A stretch of DNA of 64,000 nucleotides from Candidatus Falkowbacteria bacterium (GCA_037132255.1 JBAXPN010000001.1:17020-81019); one strand, 5' to 3'; counted from the first letter of the stretch, positions 35,365 through 50,393 are shown. The notes: generated from the letters alone by a model not told the origin. Translations and numbers: made by a program.

Positions 35365-36357
35365 ATGGCGAAAGATATTGCACGCACAACTGAATATGTC
35401 TGGCCCTCGATTGGAAACGATAAGGCAATTGAATTTTTGAATCGCAGTATTTTAAGCGATAAGATTGCACAGACTTATGTATTTATTGGTCCGGAAGAGT
35501 TAGGGAAGTCAACGATTGCTCTCGCCTTTGCGCGTAATCTTCAAGGCGATTATGATGGTTTTAATAGTGATTTATATGTTTTAAATCCAGAACCTGGGAA
35601 GAAAGGAATCGGGATTGAACAAGTTAGAGAATTTATTAAAATGCTCAATTTGAGTTCTTTTATGAATTCTTATAAGATTGGATTAATTAAAGAGGCTGAT
35701 CTTTTAAGTGAAGAAGCGAAAAGCGCTTTGCTAAAGACTCTGGAAGAACCGAAAGACAAAGTAATTATAATCATGCTGGTTAATACAGAAGAAAGTTTAC
35801 CGGCGACAATTTTATCGCGTAGCCAGAAACTTTATTTTTATCCCGTTCCGGCTGCAACGATTTATGATTATCTAATTGCTAATTACGGCGCCAGTCGTTC
35901 GCTTGCCAAAGATTTAGCGAGCTTAGCGCTTGGCCGTCCTCTAAAGGCAATTCGTTATTTAGAAAATCCTGAAGTTTATAAAACATATTTAGAAGAGGCG
36001 GAAAGTTTTTTAAGTTTATTTAACATTGATTTGAACGCTCGTTTAAAAGTTCTTGATTCTATTTTTACTGATAAGACTTATAGCAAGCAAGCGACTGAAG
36101 ATGCTCTAAGCTTTTTGCTGATGGCCGAAGGCTTGTTTCGCGATATGCTTTTACTAGTTCTTGAGCAAAAAGATCGCGTGCAGCATTTAGTAATTTTAAG
36201 TGCGCTTGAAAAAAGTTTGGCGAGTTTGCCGGGTGACACGGACGAAAAAATTAAGGGAATTTTAAATCGCCTGAAGTTTATTGCCCAAGCCAAGGAATAT
36301 TTAGAAGCGAATGTTAACCCGCGTTTAGTGCTTGAGCAATTAATAGTCAATTTATAA
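35365..36357 (+). CDS. holB: DNA polymerase III delta-prime subunit
   Basis: AAA+ clamp-loader motifs YVFIGPEELGKST, ALLKTLEEP, TILSRSQ. Confidence 0.8.
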   Translation: MAKDIARTTEYVWPSIGNDKAIEFLNRSILSDKIAQTYVFIGPEELGKSTIALAFARNLQGDYDGFNSDLYVLNPEPGKKGIGIEQVREFIKMLNLSSFMNSYKIGLIKEADLLSEEAKSALLKTLEEPKDKVIIIMLVNTEESLPATILSRSQKLYFYPVPAATIYDYLIANYGASRSLAKDLASLALGRPLKAIRYLENPEVYKTYLEEAESFLSLFNIDLNARLKVLDSIFTDKTYSKQATEDALSFLLMAEGLFRDMLLLVLEQKDRVQHLVILSALEKSLASLPGDTDEKIKGILNRLKFIAQAKEYLEANVNPRLVLEQLIVNL

Positions 36358-36368
36358 TTAATAAATAT

Positions 36369-37481
36369 ATGTCCACAAAATCTTTTAAATTAATTATCGC
36401 CCTTGTTGCCGTAGTTCTTCTAACTTCAGCTTGTACAATTTCAACGAGTACGACAGGAAGCACGCAGAGCGTCGATAGCAGTGTTTTCGCTTCAGCTGAT
36501 CGCGGTGATACTTGGCGTTCGATGGCGTCTATTCCAGTAACGAGCGGAAGCGCCGGCAGTATCGCTAACATCAGCGTTAATTTAATGACGATGGATCCGA
36601 GCGATAATCAGGCAATATATTTAGCGAGCGAAGGAGCCGGTCTTTATTATACTTATAAAATAAGTGATGGTTGGAATTTGGTTAAAGGTTTGCCAGTGAG
36701 CATGATTAACGATATAAAGGTTGACCCAAAGTCTAAATGTAACCTTTACTCAGCAATCGGTAATCGTGTTTATCGTTCGACTGATTGTTCCCGCAATTGG
36801 ACCCAAGTATATTTTGATAGTAATAGCGAAGTGAGTGTTAATGCGATTGCGATTGATCAATATAATCCGAGCAATATTTATATCGGTACGAGTCGCGGAG
36901 AAATAATTAAAAGTATTGATAGTGGAAATTCGTGGCGAACAATTCAGCGTTTAGACGAAGGGGTTGCGCGCCTTATAATTTCGCCGCTCGATAGTCGTTT
37001 GATATTTGTCGCATCATCAAAAAATAATATTTATAGCTTTAACTCGAATACCAATACTAATCCCGGTGATTCAGCAAATCTCGAAGCTAACTTTTTAGTT
37101 GAGAATTGGACAGATTTAAATGAAATTTTACGAGAGTATAATTTAGGTACGAGTTTTAAAGATATTATTGTAAGTCCGAAAGATGGCATAATGTTTCTCG
37201 CAACTGAAAAAGTTATTTTGCGTTCAAGCGATAACGCCATGACTTGGGAGAATATAAAATTAATCCAACCGGAAAAAGATGCCGTTATTAATGCAATTGC
37301 GGTTGATCCACAAAATTCTAATAATCTTTATTATGTTACTAATACAACCTTCTTTCGCTCAAGCGACGGTGGGGCAACTTGGACAACCAAGAAATTACCG
37401 ACTAAGCGCGCGGGAAGAGAATTGATAATTGATTTTAAGAATCCGAATGTGATATATTTAGGGACTAAGAAAGTTCAGTAA
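36369..37481 (+). CDS. Secreted/lipid-anchored BNR (Asp-box) repeat beta-propeller protein
   Basis: Five SxDxGxTW-like boxes: SADRGDTW, STDCSRNW, SIDSGNSW, SSDNAMTW, SSDGGATW. The N-terminal signal ends in SAC. Confidence 0.7.
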   Translation: MSTKSFKLIIALVAVVLLTSACTISTSTTGSTQSVDSSVFASADRGDTWRSMASIPVTSGSAGSIANISVNLMTMDPSDNQAIYLASEGAGLYYTYKISDGWNLVKGLPVSMINDIKVDPKSKCNLYSAIGNRVYRSTDCSRNWTQVYFDSNSEVSVNAIAIDQYNPSNIYIGTSRGEIIKSIDSGNSWRTIQRLDEGVARLIISPLDSRLIFVASSKNNIYSFNSNTNTNPGDSANLEANFLVENWTDLNEILREYNLGTSFKDIIVSPKDGIMFLATEKVILRSSDNAMTWENIKLIQPEKDAVINAIAVDPQNSNNLYYVTNTTFFRSSDGGATWTTKKLPTKRAGRELIIDFKNPNVIYLGTKKVQ

Positions 37482-37501
37482 TTTATTAAAAAATTAAAAA
37501 T

Positions 37502-38056
37502 ATGAATGATTATTTACAAAAAAAACAAGGTGATTTCGCTAATGCTCTCGATTTCTTCAGGAAAGAAATAGGAACTCTCCGTACTGGCCGAGCTAATCCG
37601 TCAGTGCTTGATAATATTCAAGTTGAAGCTTACGGAGTAATGAATCCGGTTAACGCCGTTGGAAATATTGCGGTGGCCGATGCCCGCAGTATTGTTATTG
37701 TCCCATGGGATAAAACAGTTTCCAAAGCAATTGAAAAAGCGATTGTTGATGCTGGTCTTGGCATGGGTATTTCGAATGAAGGAGATAAGATTCGTTTAAC
37801 TGTTCCGGCTTTAACTGAAGAAAATCGCAAGGCGCTCGTTAAGACGCTAAACGAAAAGATGGAAAAAACTCGTATTATCTTACGCCAGGCTCGAGATGGA
37901 ATTAAAGCCTCGATTGAAACGGCATTCACCGACAAAGAAATTAGTGAAGATGATAAATTTAGATTCATGAAAGAGCTCGATGAGTTTTCGGCTAAGAAAA
38001 ATGATGAACTTAAAGAAATCCGCGACCGTAAGGAAACGGATATAATGGAAATTTAA
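37502..38056 (+). CDS. frr: Ribosome recycling factor
   Basis: 184 aa; LRTGRANPSVLDNIQVEAYG and the PALTEENRK region are typical of RRF. Confidence 0.9.
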   Translation: MNDYLQKKQGDFANALDFFRKEIGTLRTGRANPSVLDNIQVEAYGVMNPVNAVGNIAVADARSIVIVPWDKTVSKAIEKAIVDAGLGMGISNEGDKIRLTVPALTEENRKALVKTLNEKMEKTRIILRQARDGIKASIETAFTDKEISEDDKFRFMKELDEFSAKKNDELKEIRDRKETDIMEI

Positions 38057-38070
38057 TTAATAAATAATTT

Positions 38071-39231
38071 ATGTTGTTAACGATTGTAATATTCGTTTTA
38101 GTTTTATCCGTCTTAGTCTTCGGACATGAATTTGGCCATTTTTTTACCGCTCGTCGTTTCGGCGTTAAAGCGGAAGAATTTGGTTTCGGTTTTCCGCCAC
38201 GTGGTATCGGGATTTATAAAAACAAGCATGGTAAATGGCGCTTCGTCTTCGGGAATCGGAGCGTAGAAAGTTTAGAAACCGCCGAAGACTCTAGCCTCCA
38301 TCCCGCTCCTAAATCTACTGTCTACTCGCTTAACTGGTTACCGCTTGGTGGATTTGTAAAAATTAAGGGTGAAAACGGGGAAGGTGAGAATGATAAAGAT
38401 AGTTTTGCTTATCAAAAAATTTGGAAACGCATTGTTATCTTATCGGCTGGCGTTATCATGAATGTGCTTTTAGCTTGGGTTTTATTTTCGGTTGGTTATA
38501 TGATTGGCATGCCGCAATCAACTGATACGATTGGTAAAGGCGCGATTGTTTCTGAGCCGAAAGTCATGATTGCGACTGTTATGCCTAATTCTCCGGCGTC
38601 AGCAGCGGGTTTGAAAGAAGGTGACGCGATTTTACGTATTAATAATGAAGCAGTCGGTAGCGAAAAATCTTTGCAAGACGAAGTGGCTAAAAATGATGGC
38701 GTCGTGACAAATTTGTCAGTTAAAAGAGCAGACAAAGAAATAAGCATTTCTGTGACGCCGGCCGCTAAAGATGGCGGGCGTGCGACGATGGGCGTCGCGA
38801 TTTTTGCCGCTGGCTTAGTTCGTTATCCGTTTTTTCCTGCCTTAATTGAGGGTGCGAAGACAACGACTTGGATGATCCAGCAAATTTTCGTCGCTTTCTT
38901 TAATTTATTTAAAGATATTTTTGCCGGACAGAAAGTTGGTGATCAATTCGCTGGTCCAGTCGGAATCGCAACGATTACCGGCCAGGCAGCTCGTCTCGGT
39001 TTCTCTTATCTACTGCAATTTACCGCGCTCCTATCTTTAAACCTGGCAGTTATAAATATTTTACCGTTACCAGCTCTTGATGGCGGACGCATCCTGTTTC
39101 TATTAATTGAGAAAATTAAAGGAAAGCCAGTAAAGAGAGAAGTCGAAGCTGTGATTCATAATATCGGATTCCTACTCTTAATTGCCTTGATATTATTTAT
39201 CACCTATCGCGATATCATTAAGTTATTTTAA
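38071..39231 (+). CDS. rseP: Site-2 (M50) intramembrane zinc metalloprotease with PDZ domain
   Basis: HEFGHFF (HExxH), PDZ segment NSPASAAGLKEGDAILRINN, and C-terminal NLAVINILPLPALDGG. Confidence 0.88.
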   Translation: MLLTIVIFVLVLSVLVFGHEFGHFFTARRFGVKAEEFGFGFPPRGIGIYKNKHGKWRFVFGNRSVESLETAEDSSLHPAPKSTVYSLNWLPLGGFVKIKGENGEGENDKDSFAYQKIWKRIVILSAGVIMNVLLAWVLFSVGYMIGMPQSTDTIGKGAIVSEPKVMIATVMPNSPASAAGLKEGDAILRINNEAVGSEKSLQDEVAKNDGVVTNLSVKRADKEISISVTPAAKDGGRATMGVAIFAAGLVRYPFFPALIEGAKTTTWMIQQIFVAFFNLFKDIFAGQKVGDQFAGPVGIATITGQAARLGFSYLLQFTALLSLNLAVINILPLPALDGGRILFLLIEKIKGKPVKREVEAVIHNIGFLLLIALILFITYRDIIKLF

Positions 39232-39247
39232 TTTTAAGAATAATTAT

Positions 39248-39571
39248 ATGAACATTAGAATTAAAGCAACTCGCTTAGAATTAACTCCGGCTATTCGCGA
39301 TTATTTCCAAATGAAAATGGACATGATTGAAAAATACCTAGGAGATATAAAAGCTATTAATTGCGACGTAGAAATTGAAAAAGCAGTTGGTGGTCAAAAT
39401 AAAGGAGAAATATTTCGTGCTGAAGTAAATCTCGAGGTTCCGCAAAAATTATTGCGTGTCGAAAGAACTGAAGATGATTTATATAAAGCGATTGATAAAG
39501 TTAAAGACCATCTCGAACTCGTAATTAAAAAATACAAAGATAAGATGATTGATAAAAAGAGAGGGAAGTAA
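39248..39571 (+). CDS. hpf: Ribosome hibernation factor, short HPF/RaiA type
   Basis: 107 aa; the MNIRIKATRLELTPAIRDYF start is typical of the S30AE family. Confidence 0.8.
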   Translation: MNIRIKATRLELTPAIRDYFQMKMDMIEKYLGDIKAINCDVEIEKAVGGQNKGEIFRAEVNLEVPQKLLRVERTEDDLYKAIDKVKDHLELVIKKYKDKMIDKKRGK

Positions 39572-39591
39572 AAAATAGATATTTGCAATAG

Positions 39592-39621
39592 AAAACTGTC
39601 TCCGTAAGGAGATAGTTTTTT
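39592..39621 (+). terminator. Strong intrinsic terminator after hpf
   Basis: AAAACTGTCTCC-GTAA-GGAGATAGTTTTTT: 12-bp stem with one G:T pair, followed by a T-run. Confidence 0.8.
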
Positions 39622-39741
39622 AACAATTAATTTACACATTAGTCAATATTTATTTTATCTAGAGAACGTATTATACTAATGTTAGAGCTAAAGGCAGACT
39701 TTAGATCTGTTTGTTTTTATATAAAGTTAGTCAAAATCAAT

Positions 39742-42501
39742 ATGAACATCTTTAATATCTTCGGTGATGCCAATGAAAAGATAGTAAAAGCCATGCAGCC
39801 GACAATTGATAAAATTGCCAGCTTTGAGGCGGAACTCCAGAAATTATCAGACGAAGAATTAAAAGCGAAAACCGCTATATATAAAGAGCGTATAATCAAA
39901 GGTGAAACTCTTGATGAGCTATTACCTGAAGCTTATGCCACAATGCGTGAAGCCGCGCGCCGGATTTTAAACCAGCGCCATTTTGACGTGCAGCTTGTCG
40001 GCGGCATCGTTTTGCATCGCGGTCAGATTGCGGAAATGAAAACTGGTGAAGGTAAAACTTTAGTTGCGACTTTACCATTATATTTGAATGCCCTTGAAGC
40101 TAAAGGTGTTCATTTAATTACCGTTAATGATTATTTGGCTCGACTGGGCGCCGGTTGGATGGCCCCAGTTTTCTATTCTCTTGGGCTTAGCACGTCAGTT
40201 ATTGTTCATGAAAATGCTTTTGTCTATGATCCCGAATATATTGATGAGACTCAATATGATGAGCGCTTACAACATTTTAAACGCCTCCCGCGTCGTGAAG
40301 CCTATTCTTGTGATATAACTTATGGCACGAATAATGAATTTGGTTTTGATTATTTGCGCGATAATATGGTCTTTACTCTCGAACAGGCAGTACAGCGACC
40401 GCTTAACTACGCGATTGTTGATGAAATCGATTCTATTTTAATTGATGAAGCGCGTACCCCTTTAATTATTAGCGCACCAGCGGAAGAATCAACCGATAAG
40501 TATTTTAAATTTGCTCAGTTAGTCGAACGCTTAGATGAAACTGATGATTATAATGTTGATGAAAAAATGCGTGCGGCGACTCTAACTGAAGGCGGAATCG
40601 CAAAGGTTGAAAAAATATTAGGACTCGGAAATATTTATGTCGAAGGCGGTGTTAAAGAAGTTCATCATCTTGAGCAGGCTTTAAAAGCGCGCGTCTTATT
40701 TAAAAAAGATAAGGACTATGTTGTTAAAGACGGCGAGATTATTATTGTCGACGAATTTACCGGACGTTTAATGCCGGGCCGTCGCTATAGCGAAGGTTTA
40801 CATCAAGCGATTGAAGCAAAGGAGGGTGTTAAAGTCCAAAAAGAATCCCAGACCATGGCGACAATTACTTTTCAAAACTTATTCCGTCTCTACACAAAAT
40901 TGTCCGGTATGACTGGGACAGCCGCAACGGAAGCCGAGGAATTTCATAAGATCTATAATCTCGATACGATTGTTATTCCAACTAATAAACCGAATGTCAG
41001 AAAAGATTTGAACGATTTAATCTATCGCACGGAAATGGATAAATTCAATGCGGTTATTCGTGATGTTAAAGAACGCAGTGAAAAAGGACAACCGGTTTTA
41101 ATCGGTACAATTTCAATTGAAAAAAATGAAATATTTGCCGCTTTGATGGAGCGCGAAGGGCTCCGTCCGCAAATGTTAAATGCGAAAAACCATCAACGGG
41201 AAGCGGAAATTATTGCTCAAGCCGGGCGTAAAGGCGCAATCACCCTAGCTACTAATATGGCTGGTCGTGGCGTCGATATTATTTTGGGAGGTAATCCGCC
41301 GAAAGAGGATGAACAAGCAGAAATTCGAGCTCTGGGAGGCCTTCACGTCGTCGGTACTGAGAGACATGAGTCGCGCCGCATCGATAATCAATTAAGAGGT
41401 CGCGCTGGTCGTCAGGGAGACCCGGGTTCATCCCAGTTCTATGTTTCAACCGATGACGATTTGATGCGTATTTTTGGTGGCGATCGCATGAAAGGTCTAA
41501 TGCAAACTTTAAATGTTCCGGCTGATATGCCAATTGAGAATAAGATGATTTCGAAATCAATTGAATCCGCTCAGAAGAAAGTTGAGGGGAATAATTTTGA
41601 TATCAGAAAACATTTAGTTGAATACGATGATGTTATTAATAAACATCGTACAGCTATTTATAAACGACGCCGTGAGATTCTAGAAATTGCGGAAGGTAAA
41701 GAAGTCATTGAACTCAAGAATATTAATGATGACGATGAAAGAAATGAAATTGAAACAGGAACAGTAAAGACTTTAACTTCAATTATCGCTGAGATGGTGC
41801 ACGCCGAAATTAATGCGGTTGCTAGTTTTCATACTGCAAGCGATGATAAGAGCGAATGGAGTTTGAAAGAAATTTATGAAACCATGCGCACGATTTGGAC
41901 CGCGCCGATTGAAGTTAAAAATAAATTAGAAGAACTTGCTAAGAGTGATAAGACAAAGGATGAGATTAGAGAAGATATTTTAAATTATTTAGTATCAGAA
42001 TCTGATAATTTTTATGCCGCCCTAGTTGAGAAATTTATTAATGTCGGCGTTGAATTTAAAGAAGTTGAAAAGGGAATACTTATTCGTTCAATCGATGAGA
42101 TGTGGGTTGAGCATTTAGAAACGGTTGATTATTTAAGACGGGGTATCGGTTTACGCGGCTACGGTCAGCGTGATCCGCTCGTTGAGTATAAGAAAGAAGC
42201 TTGGACCATGTATCAAGAATTAAATGCACTTATAAATAAGAATGTTGTTTACGCGATATTTAAAACTGCCGATGCGCTCGCTATGGCTAATATACCGGAA
42301 ATAAAATTATTTGCCGAGCAACCGGCGAGTAAATTAGAATTTACCGGAGCGGCTAAAGAAATGCATAAACAGGCTGAAGCGCGCAATACGGCTGATTTAG
42401 TCCATGAAAAAACCAAAGGGGAGAGCGGCGAGAAAGTAGGTCGGAACGATCCTTGCCCATGTGGGAGCGGTAAAAAATATAAGCAGTGTCATGGGAAATA
42501 A
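39742..42501 (+). CDS. secA: Preprotein translocase ATPase SecA
   Basis: MKTGEGKTLVATLP (Walker A), DEIDSILIDEARTPLIIS, TNMAGRGVDI, C-terminal zinc finger CPCGSGKKYKQCHG. The track start at 39679 adds 21 non-conserved residues; MNIFNIFG at 39742 is the likely start. Confidence 0.93.
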   Translation: MNIFNIFGDANEKIVKAMQPTIDKIASFEAELQKLSDEELKAKTAIYKERIIKGETLDELLPEAYATMREAARRILNQRHFDVQLVGGIVLHRGQIAEMKTGEGKTLVATLPLYLNALEAKGVHLITVNDYLARLGAGWMAPVFYSLGLSTSVIVHENAFVYDPEYIDETQYDERLQHFKRLPRREAYSCDITYGTNNEFGFDYLRDNMVFTLEQAVQRPLNYAIVDEIDSILIDEARTPLIISAPAEESTDKYFKFAQLVERLDETDDYNVDEKMRAATLTEGGIAKVEKILGLGNIYVEGGVKEVHHLEQALKARVLFKKDKDYVVKDGEIIIVDEFTGRLMPGRRYSEGLHQAIEAKEGVKVQKESQTMATITFQNLFRLYTKLSGMTGTAATEAEEFHKIYNLDTIVIPTNKPNVRKDLNDLIYRTEMDKFNAVIRDVKERSEKGQPVLIGTISIEKNEIFAALMEREGLRPQMLNAKNHQREAEIIAQAGRKGAITLATNMAGRGVDIILGGNPPKEDEQAEIRALGGLHVVGTERHESRRIDNQLRGRAGRQGDPGSSQFYVSTDDDLMRIFGGDRMKGLMQTLNVPADMPIENKMISKSIESAQKKVEGNNFDIRKHLVEYDDVINKHRTAIYKRRREILEIAEGKEVIELKNINDDDERNEIETGTVKTLTSIIAEMVHAEINAVASFHTASDDKSEWSLKEIYETMRTIWTAPIEVKNKLEELAKSDKTKDEIREDILNYLVSESDNFYAALVEKFINVGVEFKEVEKGILIRSIDEMWVEHLETVDYLRRGIGLRGYGQRDPLVEYKKEAWTMYQELNALINKNVVYAIFKTADALAMANIPEIKLFAEQPASKLEFTGAAKEMHKQAEARNTADLVHEKTKGESGEKVGRNDPCPCGSGKKYKQCHGK

Positions 42502-42505
42502 CTTA

Positions 42506-42958
42506 ATGAGTAAATTAATCGAAAATAAAACAGAATTAATTGAGACAGTAAAATATATTGCCAAGGAAACGGCTCGTCTTTGCAAAAGTATCGTTGGCAA
42601 ATCTTTTCCGATTAAATCATTAACTATTTTTTCACACGATGAAACTGAATATAAATTGTTATTTGCTAATCTGCAAACCCTAGGTGATCCTTATAATTAT
42701 AATAACGGTCCACGCGTGGAATTATTTAAACCGATTGTCGCTGGTGATAATAAAATAACCCATCTGCGTATTCGAAAACCAGACATGGAGCGTCCGCAAG
42801 TTGGCTGTAACGATTTCGAAACCGATTATGAATTATTTAAAAAAGAATATTTATTGAAATATCCCGAACATCTTGAGTTAATTATTCGTCCAGAGTACGA
42901 GATGATAGAATTTCGCGATAATAAATTCGATGTTCTAGCTTATGTAGTTTCAAATTAG
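42506..42958 (+). CDS. Hypothetical protein (~150 aa), unassigned
   Basis: ATG 42506 lies 4 nt after the secA stop. The track ORF from 42461 overlaps secA. No family recognised. Confidence 0.55.
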   Translation: MSKLIENKTELIETVKYIAKETARLCKSIVGKSFPIKSLTIFSHDETEYKLLFANLQTLGDPYNYNNGPRVELFKPIVAGDNKITHLRIRKPDMERPQVGCNDFETDYELFKKEYLLKYPEHLELIIRPEYEMIEFRDNKFDVLAYVVSN

Positions 42959-42965
42959 ATATTAT

Positions 42966-43163
42966 ATGGATATAGATTCGGAAAATTTAGAACAAATTAA
43001 GGTTTCACAATCGGACTCAGATGAAATTAAGATTAAAAAAATTTACGATAGTTTTATTGTTAAATTAAACCTTATAAAAAATAAGCAATTTGTTTTTTTG
43101 AATAACCTATTTATCGCTAAACAGCAAGCCGATTTAAAAGAATTAAGAAAAAAAATTCAATAA
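42966..43163 (+). CDS. Hypothetical small helical protein (65 aa)
   Basis: Tightly packed between neighbouring ORFs (7-nt and 11-nt gaps), with charged, coiled-coil-like composition. Confidence 0.45.
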   Translation: MDIDSENLEQIKVSQSDSDEIKIKKIYDSFIVKLNLIKNKQFVFLNNLFIAKQQADLKELRKKIQ

Positions 43164-43174
43164 TAATTTTAAAT

Positions 43175-44173
43175 ATGGATGAAGTTTTAAATAAAAATGA
43201 GCAGCGGGCGCCCGAGTCAAAGGCAGAAAATATTGTTGAGCTTGATTGGGAAAAATTACGTGGAACTACTGAGTTAAAAATTGATCAAGAGGTAACTAGC
43301 GCAATCACCGGGGGCGAACATGTTTTAGATACTATCCCTAATGTTACTGAGGATGAAAAAAAAGAATTTGTGGAAATTAAAAATGAAATAGTTAATTTAC
43401 AAAAAGAAACTAGAAACGAATTAGAAAAAAGTTTCGACACAAGCAAGAAAACACCAGAGAATTTTTCTAAGTCGGCCAGCTTGTTGTTAAGTGCGCTTGA
43501 GGGCAAGGAAGAATCAGCCGAGAAGGGATATGTTTTTAGCTATGACCCGATTATGGAAAAAACTAGCCAGGGAAAAGAAATAAAAGTTGATTGTTTAAGT
43601 TGGATCGGCGATGACGGTTTTGCAACTGATAATAAAAGACGCTTGGTCTTGGTGGCTACTAATCCGATTGACGGTAAAGTCGTTGGCTTGCGCCTGTCTG
43701 ATATTAGGCCAGATGGTCTATCTCATGATGAAAAAAGAGGCTATATTAATAAAGAAGCGATTACCGGAGAAATATTAACTCGTTTGCGAGGTGAAGGCAT
43801 CGCGCCGGCGTTAGATAACGCCTTCTTAAAAACGGTAACCAAAATCGCTAATTACTATAAGAAAGAGTTTGGCGGCGAGCACCAATTTACTTGGGTAGTT
43901 GAGAATGCTAATTTAAAAAGATTAAATCAGAAAAAAGAAGAAGGTCTATCGGGCCCTGAGCTTGAAGAGCTTGAAACTGAGCAGAAAAGATGGCAGGCAG
44001 TATACGGTGAGAACGGTAAACTAGGATTTAATAAAATAGATGAATATCGCTACGAGAAAGTTGTTCAGCCGGACGCAAAAGATGGTGAGTCGTATGAAAT
44101 GCAAAAAGTTGATATGAATAAGTATCACGCTATTCAATCTTCCTTAGAAGAATGCGTAAATAATGAAAAATAA
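43175..44173 (+). CDS. Hypothetical protein with possible GNAT acetyltransferase-like core
   Basis: LVLVATNPIDGKVVGLRLS...LTRLRGEGIAPALDNAFLKTV resembles GNAT beta4-alpha3 (R/Q-x-x-G-x-G/A). The N-terminal ~110 aa are acidic or disordered. Confidence 0.35.
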   Translation: MDEVLNKNEQRAPESKAENIVELDWEKLRGTTELKIDQEVTSAITGGEHVLDTIPNVTEDEKKEFVEIKNEIVNLQKETRNELEKSFDTSKKTPENFSKSASLLLSALEGKEESAEKGYVFSYDPIMEKTSQGKEIKVDCLSWIGDDGFATDNKRRLVLVATNPIDGKVVGLRLSDIRPDGLSHDEKRGYINKEAITGEILTRLRGEGIAPALDNAFLKTVTKIANYYKKEFGGEHQFTWVVENANLKRLNQKKEEGLSGPELEELETEQKRWQAVYGENGKLGFNKIDEYRYEKVVQPDAKDGESYEMQKVDMNKYHAIQSSLEECVNNEK

Positions 44174-44181
44174 AAAAACAT

Positions 44182-44574
44182 ATGAAATCAGTCGTTATAT
44201 GTGGGAGTAATCGCTTTGCTCCACAAATGCGAGAATTCGCAAAAGGATTAAAAGCTCTGGGCGTTGTCGTCTTTGAGCCGCATTTGTATCGTGCTTCTGG
44301 AGGAGTTTGGGCGGATCTTAAAGATTTTGATAAGAAATTTGTTGCGCTTGGTTTAACGCACGATCATTTTTATAAAATTAGAATGGCGGATGCGGTTTAT
44401 GTTTATAATGAAGAAGGCTATTCTGGTGTTAGTGTTAGTATGGAAATTGGTTACTCTGTCGCTGTTAATAAAGCTATTTACGTTTTCGATGAAAAGGACG
44501 AAGAAATTTGTCGCAAGGTTCTATTTAGCGGCGTCGCTAAAACGCCAGAAGAACTATTAAATTATCTAAAATAA
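44182..44574 (+). CDS. Hypothetical; nucleoside 2-deoxyribosyltransferase-like Rossmann protein
   Basis: MKSVVICGSNRF...ADAVYVYNEEGYSGVSVSMEIGYSVAVNKAIYVF follows the pattern of the NDT-like superfamily. Not verified. Confidence 0.35.
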   Translation: MKSVVICGSNRFAPQMREFAKGLKALGVVVFEPHLYRASGGVWADLKDFDKKFVALGLTHDHFYKIRMADAVYVYNEEGYSGVSVSMEIGYSVAVNKAIYVFDEKDEEICRKVLFSGVAKTPEELLNYLK

Positions 44575-44584
44575 TTTAAATTAT

Positions 44585-44854
44585 ATGTCATTAGGACGTC
44601 ATAACGATGGGCAATTTGATTTGATTAGTGATTTTGAAGCAACTGGACTCGCGAAGCCTGCGGAGAAGCAAAGAGTGCCGCGCAAGACCATTGCCGATAA
44701 GATGATCGATGAAATGTATAAGAAAGTCGCCGAAGCGGAAAAGGTGCAAAGCGAAAAAAAGAAAGTAACTAATAGCGTAAGCATTAAGGGACTTATCGAC
44801 GAGATTCATGCGTTAAAGCCCGAAGATAATATTGAAAATAAAGATAAAGAATAA
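44585..44854 (+). CDS. Hypothetical small charged protein (89 aa)
   Basis: The ORF fills the gap before ileS. Lys/Glu-rich, no recognisable motif. Confidence 0.45.
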   Translation: MSLGRHNDGQFDLISDFEATGLAKPAEKQRVPRKTIADKMIDEMYKKVAEAEKVQSEKKKVTNSVSIKGLIDEIHALKPEDNIENKDKE

Positions 44855-44868
44855 TTATAATAAAAAAT

Positions 44869-47838
44869 ATGTCAGATAAAGTAAAGCAAGCTCCTCCAGC
44901 TGCTGTTAATCATCCGGCGCCAGCGAATGCATTTGTCGCCATGGAAGAAACAATTTTAGATTTTTGGGAAAAGTCAGATATTTTTGCCAAATCAATTCAG
45001 AAAAATTCACCGCAAGGTAATTATGTTTTTTTCGAAGGGCCGCCAACAGCTAATGGCATGCCGGGCATTCATCACGTTTTAGCGCGTTCTTTTAAGGACG
45101 TTATGCCGCGTTTTAAAACCATGAATGGATATCGGGTTGAGCGTAAAGCTGGTTGGGACACACACGGACTTCCGGTAGAACTTCAGGTTGAAAAACAATT
45201 AGGAATTTCTGGCAAACCAGATATTGAAAAATACGGTATTAAAGAATTCAATGAAAAATGTAAGGAGAGTGTTTGGGTCTATCTTGATGAATGGCAGAAA
45301 TTAACTCGCCGCATCGCTTTTTGGGTAGACATGGAGCACCCTTATATTACCTATGAAAATACTTATATCGAATCTTTGTGGTGGATATTAAAAGAAATCG
45401 ATAAAAAAGGCTTGGTTTATAAAGGTCATAAAGTTGTGCCCCATTGTCCGCGTTGCGGCACTGCGCTTTCAACTCATGAAGTCGCCCAAGGCTATAAATT
45501 AACGAAAGATAATTCGGTTTATTTAAAGTTTAAAGTCACTCATGGAAACTCTCAGGTTAATCCGGGCGATTTTATTTTAGCTTGGACAACTACTCCTTGG
45601 ACTTTGCCGGGGAACGTTGCGCTTGCCGTTGGAAAAGATATTGATTATGTTCTTGTAAAACATGAAAATGAAAATTTTGTTTTAGCTAAAGAACTCACTG
45701 AAAAAGTATTTAAAGATTTAAGCCATGAAATTATTAAAGAATTCAAAGGCTCTGAATTATTAGATTTAGAATATGAACCTTTATTTGAAATTCCTTTAAT
45801 TCGCGCTGACGAAATTAAGTCTGGTAAAAAGGCTTATCGCGTTGTGCCGGCAAATTTTGTAACTACCTCGGACGGTACCGGCGTTGTTCATACCGCTGTT
45901 ATGTACGGTGAGGACGATTATAATTTAGGAGAAGAAGTTGGCTTACCAAAAGTTCATACGGTTGATGAAGCCGGCCATTTCACAAATGATTTATCCGCTT
46001 ACGGCCTCGAAGGAAAATTTGTCAAAAGCGCCGGAACGGAAAAAATTATTATCGATTATTTAATAGAGAAGGGAATACTTTTTAAAGAAGAAATTTACGA
46101 GCATGACTATCCTTTCTGCTGGCGTTGTGATACTCCGCTTCTTTATTATGCAAAAGACTCTTGGTTTATTGCCATGAGCACACTTAAGGAAAAATTATCG
46201 GCGAATAATAAAAATATTAATTGGGTCCCTGAACATATTAAAGAAGGTCGCTTTGGCGAATGGTTAAATAATGTTAAAGATTGGGCGATTTCGCGTGAAC
46301 GTTATTGGGGTACACCACTTCCAATTTGGGAATGTGAAACATGCAATAAGCATCACGTAATTGGTAGCGTTGAAGAACTTGGCGAATTAAGTGGCCAGAA
46401 AGTTACAATAGACTCGGATATCCATAAACCGGAAATCGATACTTATGAATTTACTTGCGTTGAATGCGGCGGAAAAATGAAACGCGTCAAAGAAGTTTTT
46501 GATTGCTGGTTTGATTCTGGCGCCATGCCTTATGCGCAGCATCATTATCCTTTTGAAAATCAAGAAATGATTGATAACAATGTTCAATTCCCAGCTGAGT
46601 ATATTTGCGAGGCGATTGATCAGACTCGTGGTTGGTTCTATACCTTACTCGCTATTTCTACGACCTTGGGTAAAGGGACACCTTATAAAAATGTAATTTG
46701 TCTCGGTCATATTAATGATAAATTCGGCAAGAAAATGTCGAAGTCAAAAGGGAATATTGTTAGTCCCTGGGAAGTTATTTCGCAATATGGCGTTGATGCG
46801 GTTCGTCAGCATATGTATACGATTAATCAACCCGGCGAAGGGAAACGTTATGATTTAGATGACGTTAAAGATGTTTTCCGAAAAAATATAATGTTGCTCT
46901 GGAATGTTTATAAATTCTATGAAACATACGCCACGGAAGAAAAAGGTGAAGCAAAAAAACCAGAGAGTCAAAATGTTTTAGATTTATGGATTCTCGCAAA
47001 ACTCTCAGTTTTAACTAAGAGCATGACTTTTGAATTAAATCAGTATCATATTTATGAAGCCGCTCGCCAAATTCCAGAATTTATTGATGAGCTTTCAACT
47101 TGGTATCTACGCCGAAGCCGCGATCGCTTTAAGTCCGATGACTTAGAAGATAAGAAAAATGCACTTGCGACGACTCATTACGTTTTAGGAGAACTAGCTA
47201 AATTAATGGCGCCTTTCATGCCTTTTGTTTCCGAGAATCTTTGGCAGAAAGTTAATGGCTATAATTTTAATGACGCAAATCGCTCTGTTCATTTAGAAGC
47301 CTGGCCAGTGAACGATGAGACTGACAATACAAAATTATTAGCTGACATGGACGTGATTCGTAAGATTGTTGAGCTTGGGCTCGCGAAGCGCGATGAGGCC
47401 GGAATTAAGATTCGTCAGATGCTTTCGAAAATTACTGTTAAAGTTAAGTCAGAAATTGCGCCTGAGTATATTGAGCTCATTAAAGATGAATTAAATTTAA
47501 CCGGTGTAGAATTTGCGGAGACTAAAGAAGATAAGATTGAAGTTGAGCTCGATACGGAAATTACGCCGGAATTAAAAGAAGAAGGTTTGAAGAGAGAATT
47601 GATTCGCTTCGTTAATATGTTACGTAAAGAAGGAAATCTAAATATTAATGATGAGACAAGTATTTATATTGCTGGGGCGAGCGAAGAATTAAAATCCGCG
47701 CTTATTAAAAAGAAAATGGATATCATGAAAGATACATTAAGCACGGAAATTAATTTCGTTGACTCCTTGCCGGAAGTTCTGGTTAGTAAAGAGGTAAAGA
47801 TTGATGAAGTTAAATTAATGCTCGGCCTAAAGAAGTAA
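44869..47838 (+). CDS. ileS: Isoleucyl-tRNA synthetase, type 2 (eukaryote-like)
   Basis: FFEGPPTANGMPGIHH (HIGH), KMSKSKGN (KMSKS), WTTTPWTLP, zinc motifs CPRCGT and CWRCDTP. Confidence 0.92.
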   Translation: MSDKVKQAPPAAVNHPAPANAFVAMEETILDFWEKSDIFAKSIQKNSPQGNYVFFEGPPTANGMPGIHHVLARSFKDVMPRFKTMNGYRVERKAGWDTHGLPVELQVEKQLGISGKPDIEKYGIKEFNEKCKESVWVYLDEWQKLTRRIAFWVDMEHPYITYENTYIESLWWILKEIDKKGLVYKGHKVVPHCPRCGTALSTHEVAQGYKLTKDNSVYLKFKVTHGNSQVNPGDFILAWTTTPWTLPGNVALAVGKDIDYVLVKHENENFVLAKELTEKVFKDLSHEIIKEFKGSELLDLEYEPLFEIPLIRADEIKSGKKAYRVVPANFVTTSDGTGVVHTAVMYGEDDYNLGEEVGLPKVHTVDEAGHFTNDLSAYGLEGKFVKSAGTEKIIIDYLIEKGILFKEEIYEHDYPFCWRCDTPLLYYAKDSWFIAMSTLKEKLSANNKNINWVPEHIKEGRFGEWLNNVKDWAISRERYWGTPLPIWECETCNKHHVIGSVEELGELSGQKVTIDSDIHKPEIDTYEFTCVECGGKMKRVKEVFDCWFDSGAMPYAQHHYPFENQEMIDNNVQFPAEYICEAIDQTRGWFYTLLAISTTLGKGTPYKNVICLGHINDKFGKKMSKSKGNIVSPWEVISQYGVDAVRQHMYTINQPGEGKRYDLDDVKDVFRKNIMLLWNVYKFYETYATEEKGEAKKPESQNVLDLWILAKLSVLTKSMTFELNQYHIYEAARQIPEFIDELSTWYLRRSRDRFKSDDLEDKKNALATTHYVLGELAKLMAPFMPFVSENLWQKVNGYNFNDANRSVHLEAWPVNDETDNTKLLADMDVIRKIVELGLAKRDEAGIKIRQMLSKITVKVKSEIAPEYIELIKDELNLTGVEFAETKEDKIEVELDTEITPELKEEGLKRELIRFVNMLRKEGNLNINDETSIYIAGASEELKSALIKKKMDIMKDTLSTEINFVDSLPEVLVSKEVKIDEVKLMLGLKK

Positions 47839-47867
47839 AGGGAAGAGAAATAAATCTTTTTGAATGT

Positions 47868-47910
47868 AAAAAAGCCCCATGCACGATGTTCTGTGCTTGG
47901 GGCTTTTGGT
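47868..47910. terminator. Bidirectional intrinsic terminator between ileS and the convergent gene
   Basis: AAAAAAGCCCCATGCAC-GATGTTCT-GTGCTTGGGGCTTTTGGTTT: 13-bp stem with one mismatch. Confidence 0.8.
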
Positions 47911-47939
47911 TTACGAGTTTGTGTTTGCTTTAGAATAGC

Positions 47940-48386
47940 TTAGCTGCGTTTTTTTGCCTTTGAAAGATTTATTAATAAGATCACTATTATGAGTGCGGCG
48001 CAAGCAAGTACGGCCCAGAATAATGTTTTGTAGATTTCGAGTTGATTAGTGGCCCAGTCGAGATCCTGCGTGGCGACTTCATGGTTCTCCTCGATTTCTG
48101 TTTTTTGCTGTGCGAGCACAAACGCCTGGGTGGAGAAAAGGAGATTGGTGTTATTGGCGAAGAGAGGCCAAGCATCCTGGGGTATTTCCAGAGATTTTAG
48201 AATGGACACATCTGTGCCGGTGTAGGTATTGGTACTGATTTCAGTGCTACCGCTGCCATAGGTAGTCAAAGTGTAAACAGTCAACGTTGTTCCGTTTTTA
48301 ATGACAAGGTGGTCATCCTGGGCAAATAAGTTGCTGACAATTAATACGGATACCAAGGTCAGGGCAATCATGATTCTGTTTTTCAT
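47940..48386 (-). CDS. Hypothetical secreted protein with C-terminal membrane anchor
   Basis: Signal peptide MKNRIMIALTLVSVLIVSNLFAQ. C-terminal TM helix followed by KAKKRS. Confidence 0.55.
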   Translation of the reverse strand: MKNRIMIALTLVSVLIVSNLFAQDDHLVIKNGTTLTVYTLTTYGSGSTEISTNTYTGTDVSILKSLEIPQDAWPLFANNTNLLFSTQAFVLAQQKTEIEENHEVATQDLDWATNQLEIYKTLFWAVLACAALIIVILLINLSKAKKRS

Positions 48387-48485
48387 GGGTAATTGGTTTT
48401 AGGGGTTAGATAAGCTATTCAATTATGAAAGAACGACAAGCGCTCTCATTCCTTTAACTTAAAAGTATAGCACATTTTATTAATC

Positions 48486-48523
48486 TTGTCAATATTTATT
48501 AATACTCTAAAATATACTATAAT
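48486..48523 (+). promoter_or_regulatory. Candidate promoter (TTGTCA-16-TAAAAT, or the downstream TATAAT)
   Basis: TTGTCA at 48486-48491 and TAAAAT at 48508-48513; alternative TATAAT at 48518-48523. ATG is at 48551. Confidence 0.3.
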
Positions 48524-48550
48524 AAATTATAATTAAATTTGGCTAATCTT

Positions 48551-49813
48551 ATGATAAAATTTGAATTACTTGCTCCCGCCGGGAATGAACTTAAAATGAA
48601 AACGGCCTTCGCTTATGGTGCTGATGCAGTCTATTTGGGTATTCCGGACTTTTCCCTCCGCGTCCGAATAAACGACTTTGATCTTAAGGGAATCAAGGCC
48701 GCTGTTAAATATGCCCATGATAAAAAGAAGAAAGTCTACGTTACCGTTAATATTTTTGCCCATAATGAACATATCAAGAAATTGCCGGCCTATTTAAAGG
48801 CGATAAAAGCGATGAAAGTCGATGCGTTAATCGTATCTGACCCAGGTATTATCCATGTGATAAAAAAAGTTTGGCCGACGGCGGAAATTCATTTATCAAC
48901 TCAGGCTAATTGTACAAATCTTGAGGCGGTTAAGTTTTGGGCTAAGCAGGGTTTGAAGAGAATAATTTTAGGTCGCGAAGTAACGCTCAAAGAGATAAAA
49001 GAAATTCATAAGGCGGTTCCGAAGATTGAATTAGAATATTTTGTTCATGGCGCAATGTGCATGGCTTATTCTGGTCGCTGTTTTTTGTCTAAAATGATAC
49101 TCGACCGGAGCGGCAATCTTGGTGACTGCGCGCAACCGTGTCGCTGGGAGTATGACGTGACTTTAAAAACTGGTAATCATGACGAGGAATTAGAACTTGT
49201 TGAAGAAAAACACGGGACATATTTACTTAATTCTAAGGATTTATGTTTACTTAAATACATTAAAGATTTAGCGGCCGCGGGAATTACGAGTTTTAAGATT
49301 GAAGGCCGCGCGAAAAGCGTATATTATCAGGCGACGGTCTGTGGTATTTATCGCCGTGCGCTTGACCTAATTAATAAAAAAACCAGTCAAGCTAAATTAA
49401 AGACAGAGCTTGGCTATTTATTTATTGAGCTTGAAACTAAATTAGTCCATCGCGGCTATACGGCTGGTTTTCTATTGGGAGGTAAAGCTGAACAAAATAT
49501 TGCCAATTCTCATAATACGAGCGATTGGGAATTTTGCGGTCAGGTCTTAAAGACTGAACTAACGAAAGACAAAAAAACGCGAGTCTATTTTCAGGTTCAT
49601 AATACGATTAAAATTGGTGATACGGTGGAGATTATTAGGCCGAGTTATGATATAATAAGCATAAAGCTTACTCATCTTTGGGATGCTAAAAAAGAAACGG
49701 CGCTTGAAGAGGCTCATGGCGGCGGCGGTAGTCAGACGGCATTTATTGAGCTTTATGAAGAAGTTGGATACGTGCCTGACTTATCGGTACTAAGAAGAAA
49801 AAATACAAAATAA
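48551..49813 (+). CDS. Peptidase U32 family protein (RlhA/TrhP-like)
   Basis: ELLAPAGN...GADAVYLG and the U32 signature EYFVHGAMCMAYSGRCFLS. The track starts at TTG 48539. Confidence 0.85.
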   Translation: MIKFELLAPAGNELKMKTAFAYGADAVYLGIPDFSLRVRINDFDLKGIKAAVKYAHDKKKKVYVTVNIFAHNEHIKKLPAYLKAIKAMKVDALIVSDPGIIHVIKKVWPTAEIHLSTQANCTNLEAVKFWAKQGLKRIILGREVTLKEIKEIHKAVPKIELEYFVHGAMCMAYSGRCFLSKMILDRSGNLGDCAQPCRWEYDVTLKTGNHDEELELVEEKHGTYLLNSKDLCLLKYIKDLAAAGITSFKIEGRAKSVYYQATVCGIYRRALDLINKKTSQAKLKTELGYLFIELETKLVHRGYTAGFLLGGKAEQNIANSHNTSDWEFCGQVLKTELTKDKKTRVYFQVHNTIKIGDTVEIIRPSYDIISIKLTHLWDAKKETALEEAHGGGGSQTAFIELYEEVGYVPDLSVLRRKNTK

Positions 49814-49814
49814 T

Positions 49815-50393
49815 ATGATTGCTTATCTTCACGGAAAAATAATTAATAAAACGCTTAATTACGCAATTATTGAAGTTGCCAGTATTGGCTATCAGGTATT
49901 TACCGGTGAGAATTTTTTAAACGAGTTAAAGCTTGGCGATAATGCGGAAGTATATACTCATCATCAGGTTCGAGAAGAAGCGAGCGATTTATATGGTTTC
50001 AAAACGCTTGAAGATTTAGAATTATTTGAATTACTATTAAGCGTTTCCGGCGTTGGTCCGAAATCAGCCTTGGGAGTAATTTCAATGGCGAGTGCGAGTG
50101 ATATTAAAGAGGCAATTATTCGCGGTGACGCTGATTTATTAACTAAAGTTTCCGGTATTGGAAAAAAAACGGCCGAGCGTTTAGTATTAGAACTTAAAAC
50201 AAAAGTTTTGCGAACTACGAGCGGCGCCAGTCTTGGTTCGCCAAGTTTAGCTGGCAGCGATGAAATCGATGCTTTAATGAGCTTAGGGTACTCTCTGAGC
50301 GAAGCGCGAGCCGCTTTTAATATGGTCGACCCTAGCCTCACAGATAGTGGCGAAAGGGTCAAGGCAGCGCTTAAAAAAATGGTGAAAAAGTAG
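49815..50393 (+). CDS. ruvA: Holliday junction DNA helicase subunit RuvA
   Basis: MIAYLHGKI start, two HhH motifs (LLSVSGVGPKSA, KVSGIGKKTAERL), and a C-terminal domain III. Confidence 0.88.
   Translation: MIAYLHGKIINKTLNYAIIEVASIGYQVFTGENFLNELKLGDNAEVYTHHQVREEASDLYGFKTLEDLELFELLLSVSGVGPKSALGVISMASASDIKEAIIRGDADLLTKVSGIGKKTAERLVLELKTKVLRTTSGASLGSPSLAGSDEIDALMSLGYSLSEARAAFNMVDPSLTDSGERVKAALKKMVKK

Follow-up and report, generated by a model that had tools for sequence, protein, structure and literature searches.

Five small genes between secA and ileS in Candidatus Falkowbacteria: a probable remnant of a variable nucleotide-sanitation array

What does a run of five small hypothetical genes, tightly packed among the housekeeping genes of a reduced genome, represent? 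Such packing does not by itself point to a functional module or to a conflict system, and the question is posed here by a stretch of 64,000 nucleotides (nt) of Candidatus Falkowbacteria DNA (GCA_037132255.1 JBAXPN010000001.1:17020-81019), referred to in its full length as the window; Candidatus Falkowbacteria is a lineage of the Candidate Phyla Radiation (CPR), or Patescibacteria. The coordinates confirm the arrangement described in an initial annotation of this DNA, namely five co-directional open reading frames (ORF1 to ORF5) of 150, 65, 332, 130 and 89 amino acids (aa) between secA and ileS, with six gaps of 4, 7, 11, 8, 10 and 14 nt from the secA stop (42501) to the ileS start (44869). Through comparison with related loci we arrive at an explanation that we regard as reasonably probable: the block would be a reduced local copy of a variable array of nucleotide-sanitation and accessory enzymes, probably expressed together with secA and ileS. 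On the comparative sequence data the five genes adjoin one another through gene loss and not as one machine, and the block amounts to an unremarkable, though under-annotated, segment of a CPR housekeeping operon, in which known enzyme superfamilies are represented by divergent members.

The frame RRF-RseP-HPF-secA ... ileS is conserved in relatives, whilst the interval between secA and ileS varies: across 22 related loci (cited here by L numbers, individual proteins by P numbers), 3-13 small genes separate the two anchors, with conserved order and varying content. A census of the array by ORF clustering and Pfam searches over 20 secA-ileS intervals (1.2-8 kb) called 145 ORFs, 3-13 in each interval and all but four on the + strand. 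It recorded NUDIX proteins (17 genes in 13 loci), the ORF4 family (16 loci), the ORF2 and ORF3 families (11 loci each) and a Bro-N protein (8 loci), together with MazG, HD/HD_3 (YfbR-like)/HD_4, ASCH, DUF3850, Maf, NTPase_I-T and Ham1 (ITPase) proteins, 2-thiouracil desulfurase, inorganic pyrophosphatase and GrpB. Genes of nucleotide-handling type numbered 63 in 64.9 kb of intervals versus 0 in 163.3 kb of flanks, a contrast that is to be read as an upper estimate because the queries came from the intervals, and more distant members of the NUDIX or HD families may have gone undetected in the flanks. A comparable placement exists in E. coli, where the NUDIX sanitiser mutT directly follows secA on the same strand (secM-secA-mutT), which we liken to the NUDIX and MazG genes after secA in CPR loci; however, a single gene is concerned there, whereas the CPR lineage exhibits a variable run of 3-13 genes up to ileS, and nothing shows that the two arrangements share ancestry. 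This array context supports both the co-directional packing with housekeeping genes and the nucleotide theme that the initial annotation had proposed.

Whether the five genes form a unit can be judged from their distribution. They are never contiguous in relatives, and all five occur together, in the same order, only in L116 and L117, which are among the closest relatives, and even there 5-7 other genes are interleaved. The order in L116 is secA - 229 aa - ORF1 - NUDIX - ORF2 - ORF3 - 90 aa - Bro-N - methyltransferase - ORF4 - ORF5 - ileS; in L117, secA is followed by a MazG-like gene, ORF1, genes for proteins of 51, 559 and 229 aa, NUDIX, ORF2 and ORF3, and then by an 89-aa gene, the methyltransferase, ORF4, ORF5 and ileS, giving seven extra genes overall. 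Other loci keep subsets: ORF1-2-3-4, ORF2-3-4, ORF2-3, ORF4-5 or ORF4 alone. The window itself carries a trace of such loss: DNA alignment reveals that the first ~66 nt of ORF2 match the start of the 229-aa gene (L117, L037) and then pass into the ORF2 body, the switch point being a short shared A-rich stretch. This chimera is the footprint of a deletion, in which the body of the 229-aa gene and a NUDIX gene were removed and ORF2 was kept in frame.

These observations bear directly on the proposal of the initial annotation, in which all five genes make up a single lineage-specific module that modifies nucleotides or metabolites and has been inserted among housekeeping genes, with a toxin or conflict system as one possibility. 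The tight packing, the presence of folds resembling nucleoside 2-deoxyribosyltransferase (NDT) and GNAT proteins and the co-occurrence of all five genes in L116 and L117 speak for it. However, the genes interleaved in these two loci are foreign to the supposed module, other relatives keep only ORF2 with ORF3, ORF4, or ORF4 with ORF5, and ORF1 and ORF4 are widespread families with contexts of their own. Furthermore, the genes are syntenic and their divergence tracks that of secA and ileS, as under vertical inheritance, and searches of PADLOC, phage DNA and plasmid proteins gave no real match: PADLOC returned only ORF5 against PD-Lambda-2_C (E=0.014, 13 bits) for the five proteins, and the phage and plasmid searches returned nothing. 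We regard the single-module reading as very unlikely and as largely refuted by the comparative data, and the suggestion of a toxin or conflict function is not borne out. An origin from a mobile element or prophage was likewise rejected, given the lack of phage or plasmid matches and the conserved syntenic frame.

In favour of a reduced array, all five ORFs are, as judged from substitution patterns, genuine coding genes. The ratio of nonsynonymous to synonymous substitution rates (dN/dS) was 0.04-0.17 against L116, L117 and L036 wherever dS was estimable, indicating purifying selection on each of them, including the small ORFs whose coding signal had been in question; dS is saturated in these comparisons, for which amino-acid identity lies at 52-87%. 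The description of the five as orphans does not hold for ORF1 and ORF4, with at least 319 and at least 736 relatives in the database respectively, and fits loosely for the lineage-restricted ORF2, ORF3 and ORF5. That only weak family hints exist was accurate for direct searches: with the five window proteins, Pfam returned a single, weak match, that of ORF4 to PF05014 (Nuc_deoxyrib_tr), and NCBIfam, PHROGs and PADLOC returned nothing usable.

The clearest link to nucleotide metabolism is ORF4 (44182-44574, + strand), whose relatives are found at 54-86% identity across Patescibacteria. In a family sample, 24/24 members match PF05014 (best E=3.6e-8), and alignment of the ORF4 family profile with human DNPH1 by hhalign (query sequence checked against PDB entries 8qhr and 4p5e) gave E=2e-3 with 30% identity over 90 columns. 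In this alignment CGSNRF stands opposite CGSIRGG and MEIGYSVAVNKAIY opposite YELGRAVAFNKRIL. The Glu of the E-x-G segment, which follows the central strand, is the nucleophile in NDT and DNPH1; in ORF4 the residue E88 (MEIGY) is invariant in the 24 sequences and stands opposite the Glu in the YELG segment of human DNPH1, and likewise opposite that of VELG in the bacterial NDT 8pqp, the matches to PDB sequences being weak. The CGS loop is invariant too, and an HDHFYK segment and the pair C110/R111 are invariant and specific to the ORF4 family. As in DNPH1/Rcl (2'-deoxynucleoside 5'-phosphate N-hydrolase, 5-hydroxymethyl-dUMP N-hydrolase) and in NDTs, the protein consists of a single small domain of similar size; compared to DNPH1 it retains the CGS loop and the Glu but exhibits Val/Ile where DNPH1 has Tyr. 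We also liken the contexts, as ORF4 too lies among nucleotide-sanitising genes: it is found inside 16/20 secA-ileS intervals as well as in L116 and L117, usually just before ileS, and among 50 loci in which relatives lie outside this frame, 21 NUDIX genes and 14 second NDT-like paralogues were counted within three genes. Thus, the NDT-like character proposed for the 130-aa protein is upheld by the family-wide matches and by the aligned Glu, and the predicted membership of ORF4 in the NDT/DNPH1 superfamily holds. As a separate observation, ORF4-family genes often adjoin a second, divergent NDT-like paralogue (~28-34% identity), and such pairs are frequently adjoined in turn by a NUDIX gene (L066, L071, L075, L082, L086-L088, L090, L094, L101, L111, L112, L114, L115).

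ORF1 (42506-42958, + strand) belongs to a family without a Pfam model, the relatives of which (60-82% identity) are spread over many Patescibacteria groups. A GTG at 42461 was rejected as its start, homologues beginning at the ATG at 42506. Genes of the family (32-55% identity) are also present in L027, L028, L032 and L035, assemblies labelled Micrarchaeota, Aenigmatarchaeota and Woesearchaeota, and from these sequences the family appears to be common to CPR bacteria and DPANN archaea. The AlphaFold model (pLDDT 92.7) begins with a helix at the N-terminus and continues with a pair of beta-alpha-beta-beta-beta modules, the first formed by E36-42, H46-57, E60-63, E70-79 and E82-90 and the second by E100-104, H108-116, E123-127, E132-136 and E143-148 (E, strand; H, helix). 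The best PDB match in Foldseek was 1k4n (E=5.4e-5, probability 1.0, TM 0.58, 11% identity), followed by methylmalonyl-CoA epimerase, FosX and extradiol dioxygenases, all of the vicinal oxygen chelate (VOC) superfamily. Entry 1k4n is the E. coli structural-genomics protein EC4020, which we take to be YecM; to our knowledge YecM has no assigned function, and a literature search on it returned unrelated papers only. The paired modules are likewise found in 1k4n and the VOC superfamily, from which ORF1 differs in its restriction to CPR and DPANN and in the lack of sequence-level matches: no Pfam or NCBIfam entry and no curated VOC or YecM profile recognises ORF1, and the sole PDB sequence retrieved with its own profile was that of a designed helical protein (E=1.1). 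Invariant residues are R70, R88, R90, R96, R128, D93, Q98, D103, Y108 and E135, and the five arginines suggest, without proving it, an anionic substrate. Candidate metal-binding residues are conserved as well: H44, E132, E135, C101 and D103, together with a mostly conserved His in THLR.

The position of ORF1 invites another explanation, in which it would be a SecA-associated chaperone or regulator and not a metabolic enzyme. This would explain why ORF1 directly follows secA across CPR phyla: secA lies upstream on the same strand in 15/30 genome loci, including Portnoy-, Kerfeld- and Parcubacteria-like lineages, and in 7 of them, from several CPR groups, the distance is at most 18 nt. However, the family also occurs in DPANN-labelled assemblies and in CPR loci with no secA nearby, the predicted structure resembles VOC enzymes and many of its polar residues are invariant, and other small enzymes follow secA too, both in CPR genomes and in E. 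coli. Because of the VOC fold and the presence in DPANN-labelled assemblies we consider a SecA cofactor role to be very improbable indeed. In other CPR phyla the neighbours of ORF1 include NUDIX, ASCH, Maf, TudS, NTPase_I-T, pyrophosphatase, GrpB, UDG and an NDT-like gene.

ORF3 (43175-44173, + strand) has 19 close relatives, and a profile search against 1.84 billion representatives gave 158 matches at E<=1e-3, mostly of 260-280 aa. Its model (pLDDT 83.5) falls into two parts. The N-terminal module (43175..43450, + strand) begins with the acidic residues 1-23, at pLDDT <50, and continues with two long helices (25-53 and 59-87); the C-terminal alpha/beta domain of ~238 aa (43457..44173, + strand) resembles a divergent GNAT fold. 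GNATs ranked first in Foldseek searches both of the PDB (top match Ard1, 5c88, E=2.1e-3, probability 0.99) and of BFVD (Hokovirus N-acetyltransferase, E=1.1e-3). A profile broadened to 60 sequences found 8 PDB chains at E<10, 8/8 of which are GNATs aligned on the RGxGIA segment, and the weak Pfam matches of 60 family members include Acetyltransf_1 in only 3 (best E=0.002), Acetyltransf_7 in 2 and Acetyltransf_10 in 1, the first two being the most frequent; the same search with 10 remote or longer family proteins gave no match. In the loop R205-G-E-G208-I-A210, 17 sequences show little or no variation at R205, G208 and A210, and the model places this R-x-x-G-x-A loop between strand 189-202 and helix 209-231. 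A second invariant segment, EQxRWQxxYGxxGKxGF, brings YG..GK.GF to the position of GNAT motif B. We accept the C-terminal domain as a predicted divergent GNAT fold, and the GNAT-like character noted in the initial annotation is sustained by the Foldseek ranks, the PDB profile matches and the loop placement. Compared to GNATs such as archaeal Ard1/SSO0209, Naa30 and phosphinothricin N-acetyltransferase, ORF3 shares the R-x-x-G-x-A loop and the motif-B-like segment, whilst its domain is larger (~235 aa with a helical insertion at 245-277, against 150-207 residues in the matched chains) and is both preceded by a helical module of 90 aa and accompanied by a mini-protein as partner. In one protein, P0332, the GNAT-like domain is present as a tandem duplication.

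Given these matches, ORF3 could be a translation-related protein acetyltransferase, similar to RimI or to N-terminal acetyltransferases, that belongs with RRF, HPF and ileS: its best structural and sequence matches are the N-alpha-acetyltransferases Ard1 (5c88, 4lx9) and Naa30 (7l1k), and the conserved frame does contain translation genes. Yet the matches are marginal and mainly concern the acyl-CoA-binding core common to all GNATs, and a distant homologue, P0019 (L005), is found within a glycosyltransferase cluster. Such a role is, in our estimation, quite improbable.

The partner mini-protein is ORF2 (42966-43163, + strand), a helical protein of ~50 aa with the conserved core KIYDSFIVKLN...LRKKIQ, which in the window begins with the chimeric segment described above. 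It is 69-76% identical to its relatives (dN/dS 0.08 vs L116) and, like ORF5, is confined to a Falkowbacteria-like clade. A hidden Markov model (HMM) of ORF2 detected a copy immediately upstream of each ORF3 homologue, and further copies upstream of a 559-aa protein (L117 6619-8298) and a 520-aa protein (L062 6429-7991). An HMM of ORF3 residues 1-92 identified the same N-module on these two proteins, where it is joined to an unrelated C-terminal region that contains a AEHEFLGHKAVD segment; Pfam gave no match with the L117 559-aa protein. In P0386 (L119 1441-2694) the N-module is joined to a region with methyltransferase-like motifs, as read from the sequence, and the order in L119 is secA, an ORF2-like 64-aa ORF (E=1e-16), P0386, then deaminase, NUDIX and deaminase genes. 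P0260 unites the N-module, the P0386-type methyltransferase-like region and the GNAT-like domain in one protein. By these profile matches at least three distinct C-terminal regions share the N-module, and each carrier found on a contig has an ORF2-like ORF before its start (E 1e-10 to 1e-29). Because ORF2-like ORFs precede N-module proteins that have no GNAT domain, ORF2 appears to pair with the N-module and not with the GNAT domain, and we infer that it binds the N-terminal helical hairpin of ORF3.

This pairing bears on how far ORF2 and ORF3 can be read as a toxin-antitoxin (TA) pair of the GNAT class, type II, that would acetylate aminoacyl-tRNA and lie beside ileS. Known examples of this class are AtaR-AtaT, TacA-TacT, ItaR-ItaT and GmvAT. 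As in these systems, a small ORF stands immediately upstream of a gene for a GNAT-fold protein, and does so in every locus, and the GNAT toxins 7byy, 7f37 (AtaT2) and 9ilr (GmvT) are among the Foldseek matches. These toxin matches, however, are weaker (E 0.045-0.12) than those of N-terminal acetyltransferases at 0.002, and ORF3, which contains a helical N-module and insertions, has 332 aa, roughly double the 156-180 residues of the toxin chains. Moreover, Pfam, NCBIfam and PADLOC returned no match with ORF2 and PHROGs only one at E=0.33, the lack of a Pfam match implying no recognisable DNA-binding family, and the locus is stable in position and vertically inherited, with no mobile context found and nothing on plasmids or phages. 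Since ORF2 pairs with the N-module and matches none of the profile libraries searched, and the locus is syntenic, we judge a GNAT toxin-antitoxin pair to be extremely improbable.

A broader role for the pairing can also be envisaged, in which ORF2 and the ORF3 N-module would constitute a targeting or assembly cassette: a helical adaptor would bind a hairpin that carries interchangeable enzymatic domains, and deliver them to the membrane, the Sec machinery, the ribosome or a multi-enzyme complex. The occurrence of the N-module on GNAT-like, 520-559 aa and methyltransferase-like regions and on the composite P0260 is in line with this, as is the ORF2-like ORF before each contig-located carrier. 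In addition, one clade has ORF2 as a C-terminal extension of ORF1, the fusion giving a single 201-aa protein (P0148, P0150; L038 4667-5272, L039 2975-3580, L040 2460-3065, L041 4090-4695), and secA stands a short way upstream in every case. On the other hand, all of them come from one narrow lineage, the ORF2-N-module interaction is predicted only, more distant ORF3 homologues lack the N-module, the adjacency to secA may only reflect position in the array, and ORF3 showed neither a secretion signal nor a strong membrane helix. The cassette is thus possible but, on balance, unlikely. The wider proposition that the ORF2-ORF3 hairpin pair is an undescribed adaptor-docking cassette in Falkowbacteria-like CPR and that, separately, ORF1 is a new nucleotide-sanitation enzyme common to CPR and DPANN is distinctly unlikely. 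If true, modifying enzymes whose genes come immediately after secA would be assembled or targeted as a set by the cassette; the ORF2-N-module pairing is the one unexplained feature worth following, and it provides a concrete protein-protein hypothesis.

ORF5 (44585-44854, + strand) is a small, charged and fast-evolving protein, with 52-60% identity where ORF4 shows 78-87%. Its HMM recovered four clear members, each directly before ileS, and one marginal match in L047 (E=0.0066). In most relatives this position before ileS is taken by another small protein, of low complexity and high charge (L001 9107-9442, L044 7569-7889, L047 8401-8790, L048 9113-9445, L050 4630-5172, L062 8408-8749, L065 8151-8507), several of which begin M-[PS]-[FY]-K/E ... 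D-L-W; given the four clear members and one marginal member, homology of all of these proteins to ORF5 is unproven.

The flanking genes and signals complete the picture of the locus. The secA gene (39742..42501, + strand), the homologues of which carry the Pfam SecA domains, is the upstream anchor of the conserved frame; its reading frame opens at 39679, and since all homologues align only from residue 22, translation probably starts at the ATG at 39742 (MNIFNIFGD...). The downstream anchor is ileS (44869..47838, + strand). As the initial annotation had stated, the five-ORF block contains no terminator-like site on the + strand. Its further statement that there is no promoter stands in part: sigma-70-like matches are not enriched across the region (44 found vs 37 +/- 5.5 expected), but one match at 11/12 positions, TTGAAA-18-TATAAT (44832..44861, + strand), overlaps the 3' end of ORF5, its last position being 7 nt short of the ileS ATG. 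In DNA this rich in A and T, the match may be due to chance; if used, it would render the ileS mRNA almost leaderless. An Rfam search of 36-49 kb gave no match, and thus no leader, riboswitch, T-box or other element before ileS, and ARAGORN found no tRNA within the window. None of the six intergenic gaps (42502-44868) contains a GGAGG-like Shine-Dalgarno sequence, the gaps being purely A/T, which suggests translational coupling or initiation independent of a Shine-Dalgarno sequence. Over 36000-50000, GC skew is positive in each 500-nt window and nearly all genes lie on the + strand, which is consistent with a leading-strand location.

Further features of the array were observed in relatives. 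The Bro-N domain usually occurs in phages and viruses; a Bro-N protein of 275-281 aa recurs in the secA-ileS array (L038 2941-3777, L040 725-1570, L044 6335-7156, L048 6104-6928, L050 3400-4227, L065 7307-8146, L116 7370-8212), and the window has no such gene. In six loci (L037 7359-7628, L038-L041, L050) the ORF3 neighbourhood is succeeded by a protein of 86-89 aa that has two hydrophobic segments, and ORFs of 89-90 aa occupy this position after ORF3 in L116 and L117; the window has no counterpart of these genes. In the 911-kb ENA contig L001 (9457-12434) ileS is split into ORFs of 433 and 559 aa, and in the near-identical Logan assembly L002 (9457-12435) it is intact with 992 aa, probably due to a frameshift error in one of the assemblies.

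Bringing these lines together, the reduced-array explanation would work as follows. The array would fill the RRF-RseP-HPF-secA-[array]-ileS frame in Candidatus Falkowbacteria and close relatives and be expressed with those genes. NUDIX or MazG-type enzymes, encoded in the array or elsewhere in the genome, would convert aberrant (d)NTPs to monophosphates, and ORF4, as a putative DNPH1/NDT-like N-glycosidase, would cleave unwanted (deoxy)nucleoside monophosphates into base and sugar phosphate. ORF1 would be a VOC-fold enzyme with an arginine-rich conserved surface, probably acting on a phosphorylated small molecule within the same metabolic theme, and ORF3 an acetyl- or acyl-CoA-dependent transferase of GNAT type. 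ORF2 may dock on or regulate the N-terminal helical hairpin of ORF3, and ORF5 would be a small charged protein tied to ileS.

Several points weigh against this explanation, in addition to the ceiling on the census contrast given above. The window protein ORF4 itself matches PF05014 only at E=1e-3 and 19.6 bits, under the cut-off of 28.8 bits, and its residues V5/I6 lie opposite Y24/F25 of DNPH1, the Tyr before CGS not being conserved. The statistics for the GNAT assignment of ORF3 are marginal (Foldseek E ~1e-3, PDB profile E=0.028, no Pfam match), and the roles given to ORF1, ORF3 and ORF5 derive solely from fold and gene context. Genes outside the nucleotide theme are present in the arrays as well: Bro-N, TspO, Mur ligase, Ddl, an alpha/beta hydrolase and an S-adenosylmethionine-dependent methyltransferase. 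Finally, co-transcription is deduced from spacing alone, and a promoter-like site precedes ileS.

The explanation nonetheless agrees with what is known of the physiology of these organisms. Most CPR bacteria lack de novo nucleotide synthesis and are expected to scavenge DNA (PMC6744442), and salvage admits modified nucleosides, which NUDIX, MazG-type, ITPase and dUTPase enzymes intercept (PMC12887539). An array rich in enzymes for the cleaning and recycling of nucleotides fits because the organisms must scavenge nucleic acids; the literature that links Patescibacteria with nucleotide salvage and NUDIX proteins provides general background only. CPR and DPANN organisms live on scavenged nucleic acids, and how damaged or modified nucleotides are kept out is a real physiological question for them. 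The slot between secA and ileS would gather a nucleotide clean-up toolkit in one place, and it offers biochemistry two widespread and uncharacterised small families as candidates: the VOC-fold ORF1 and the DNPH1/NDT-like ORF4.

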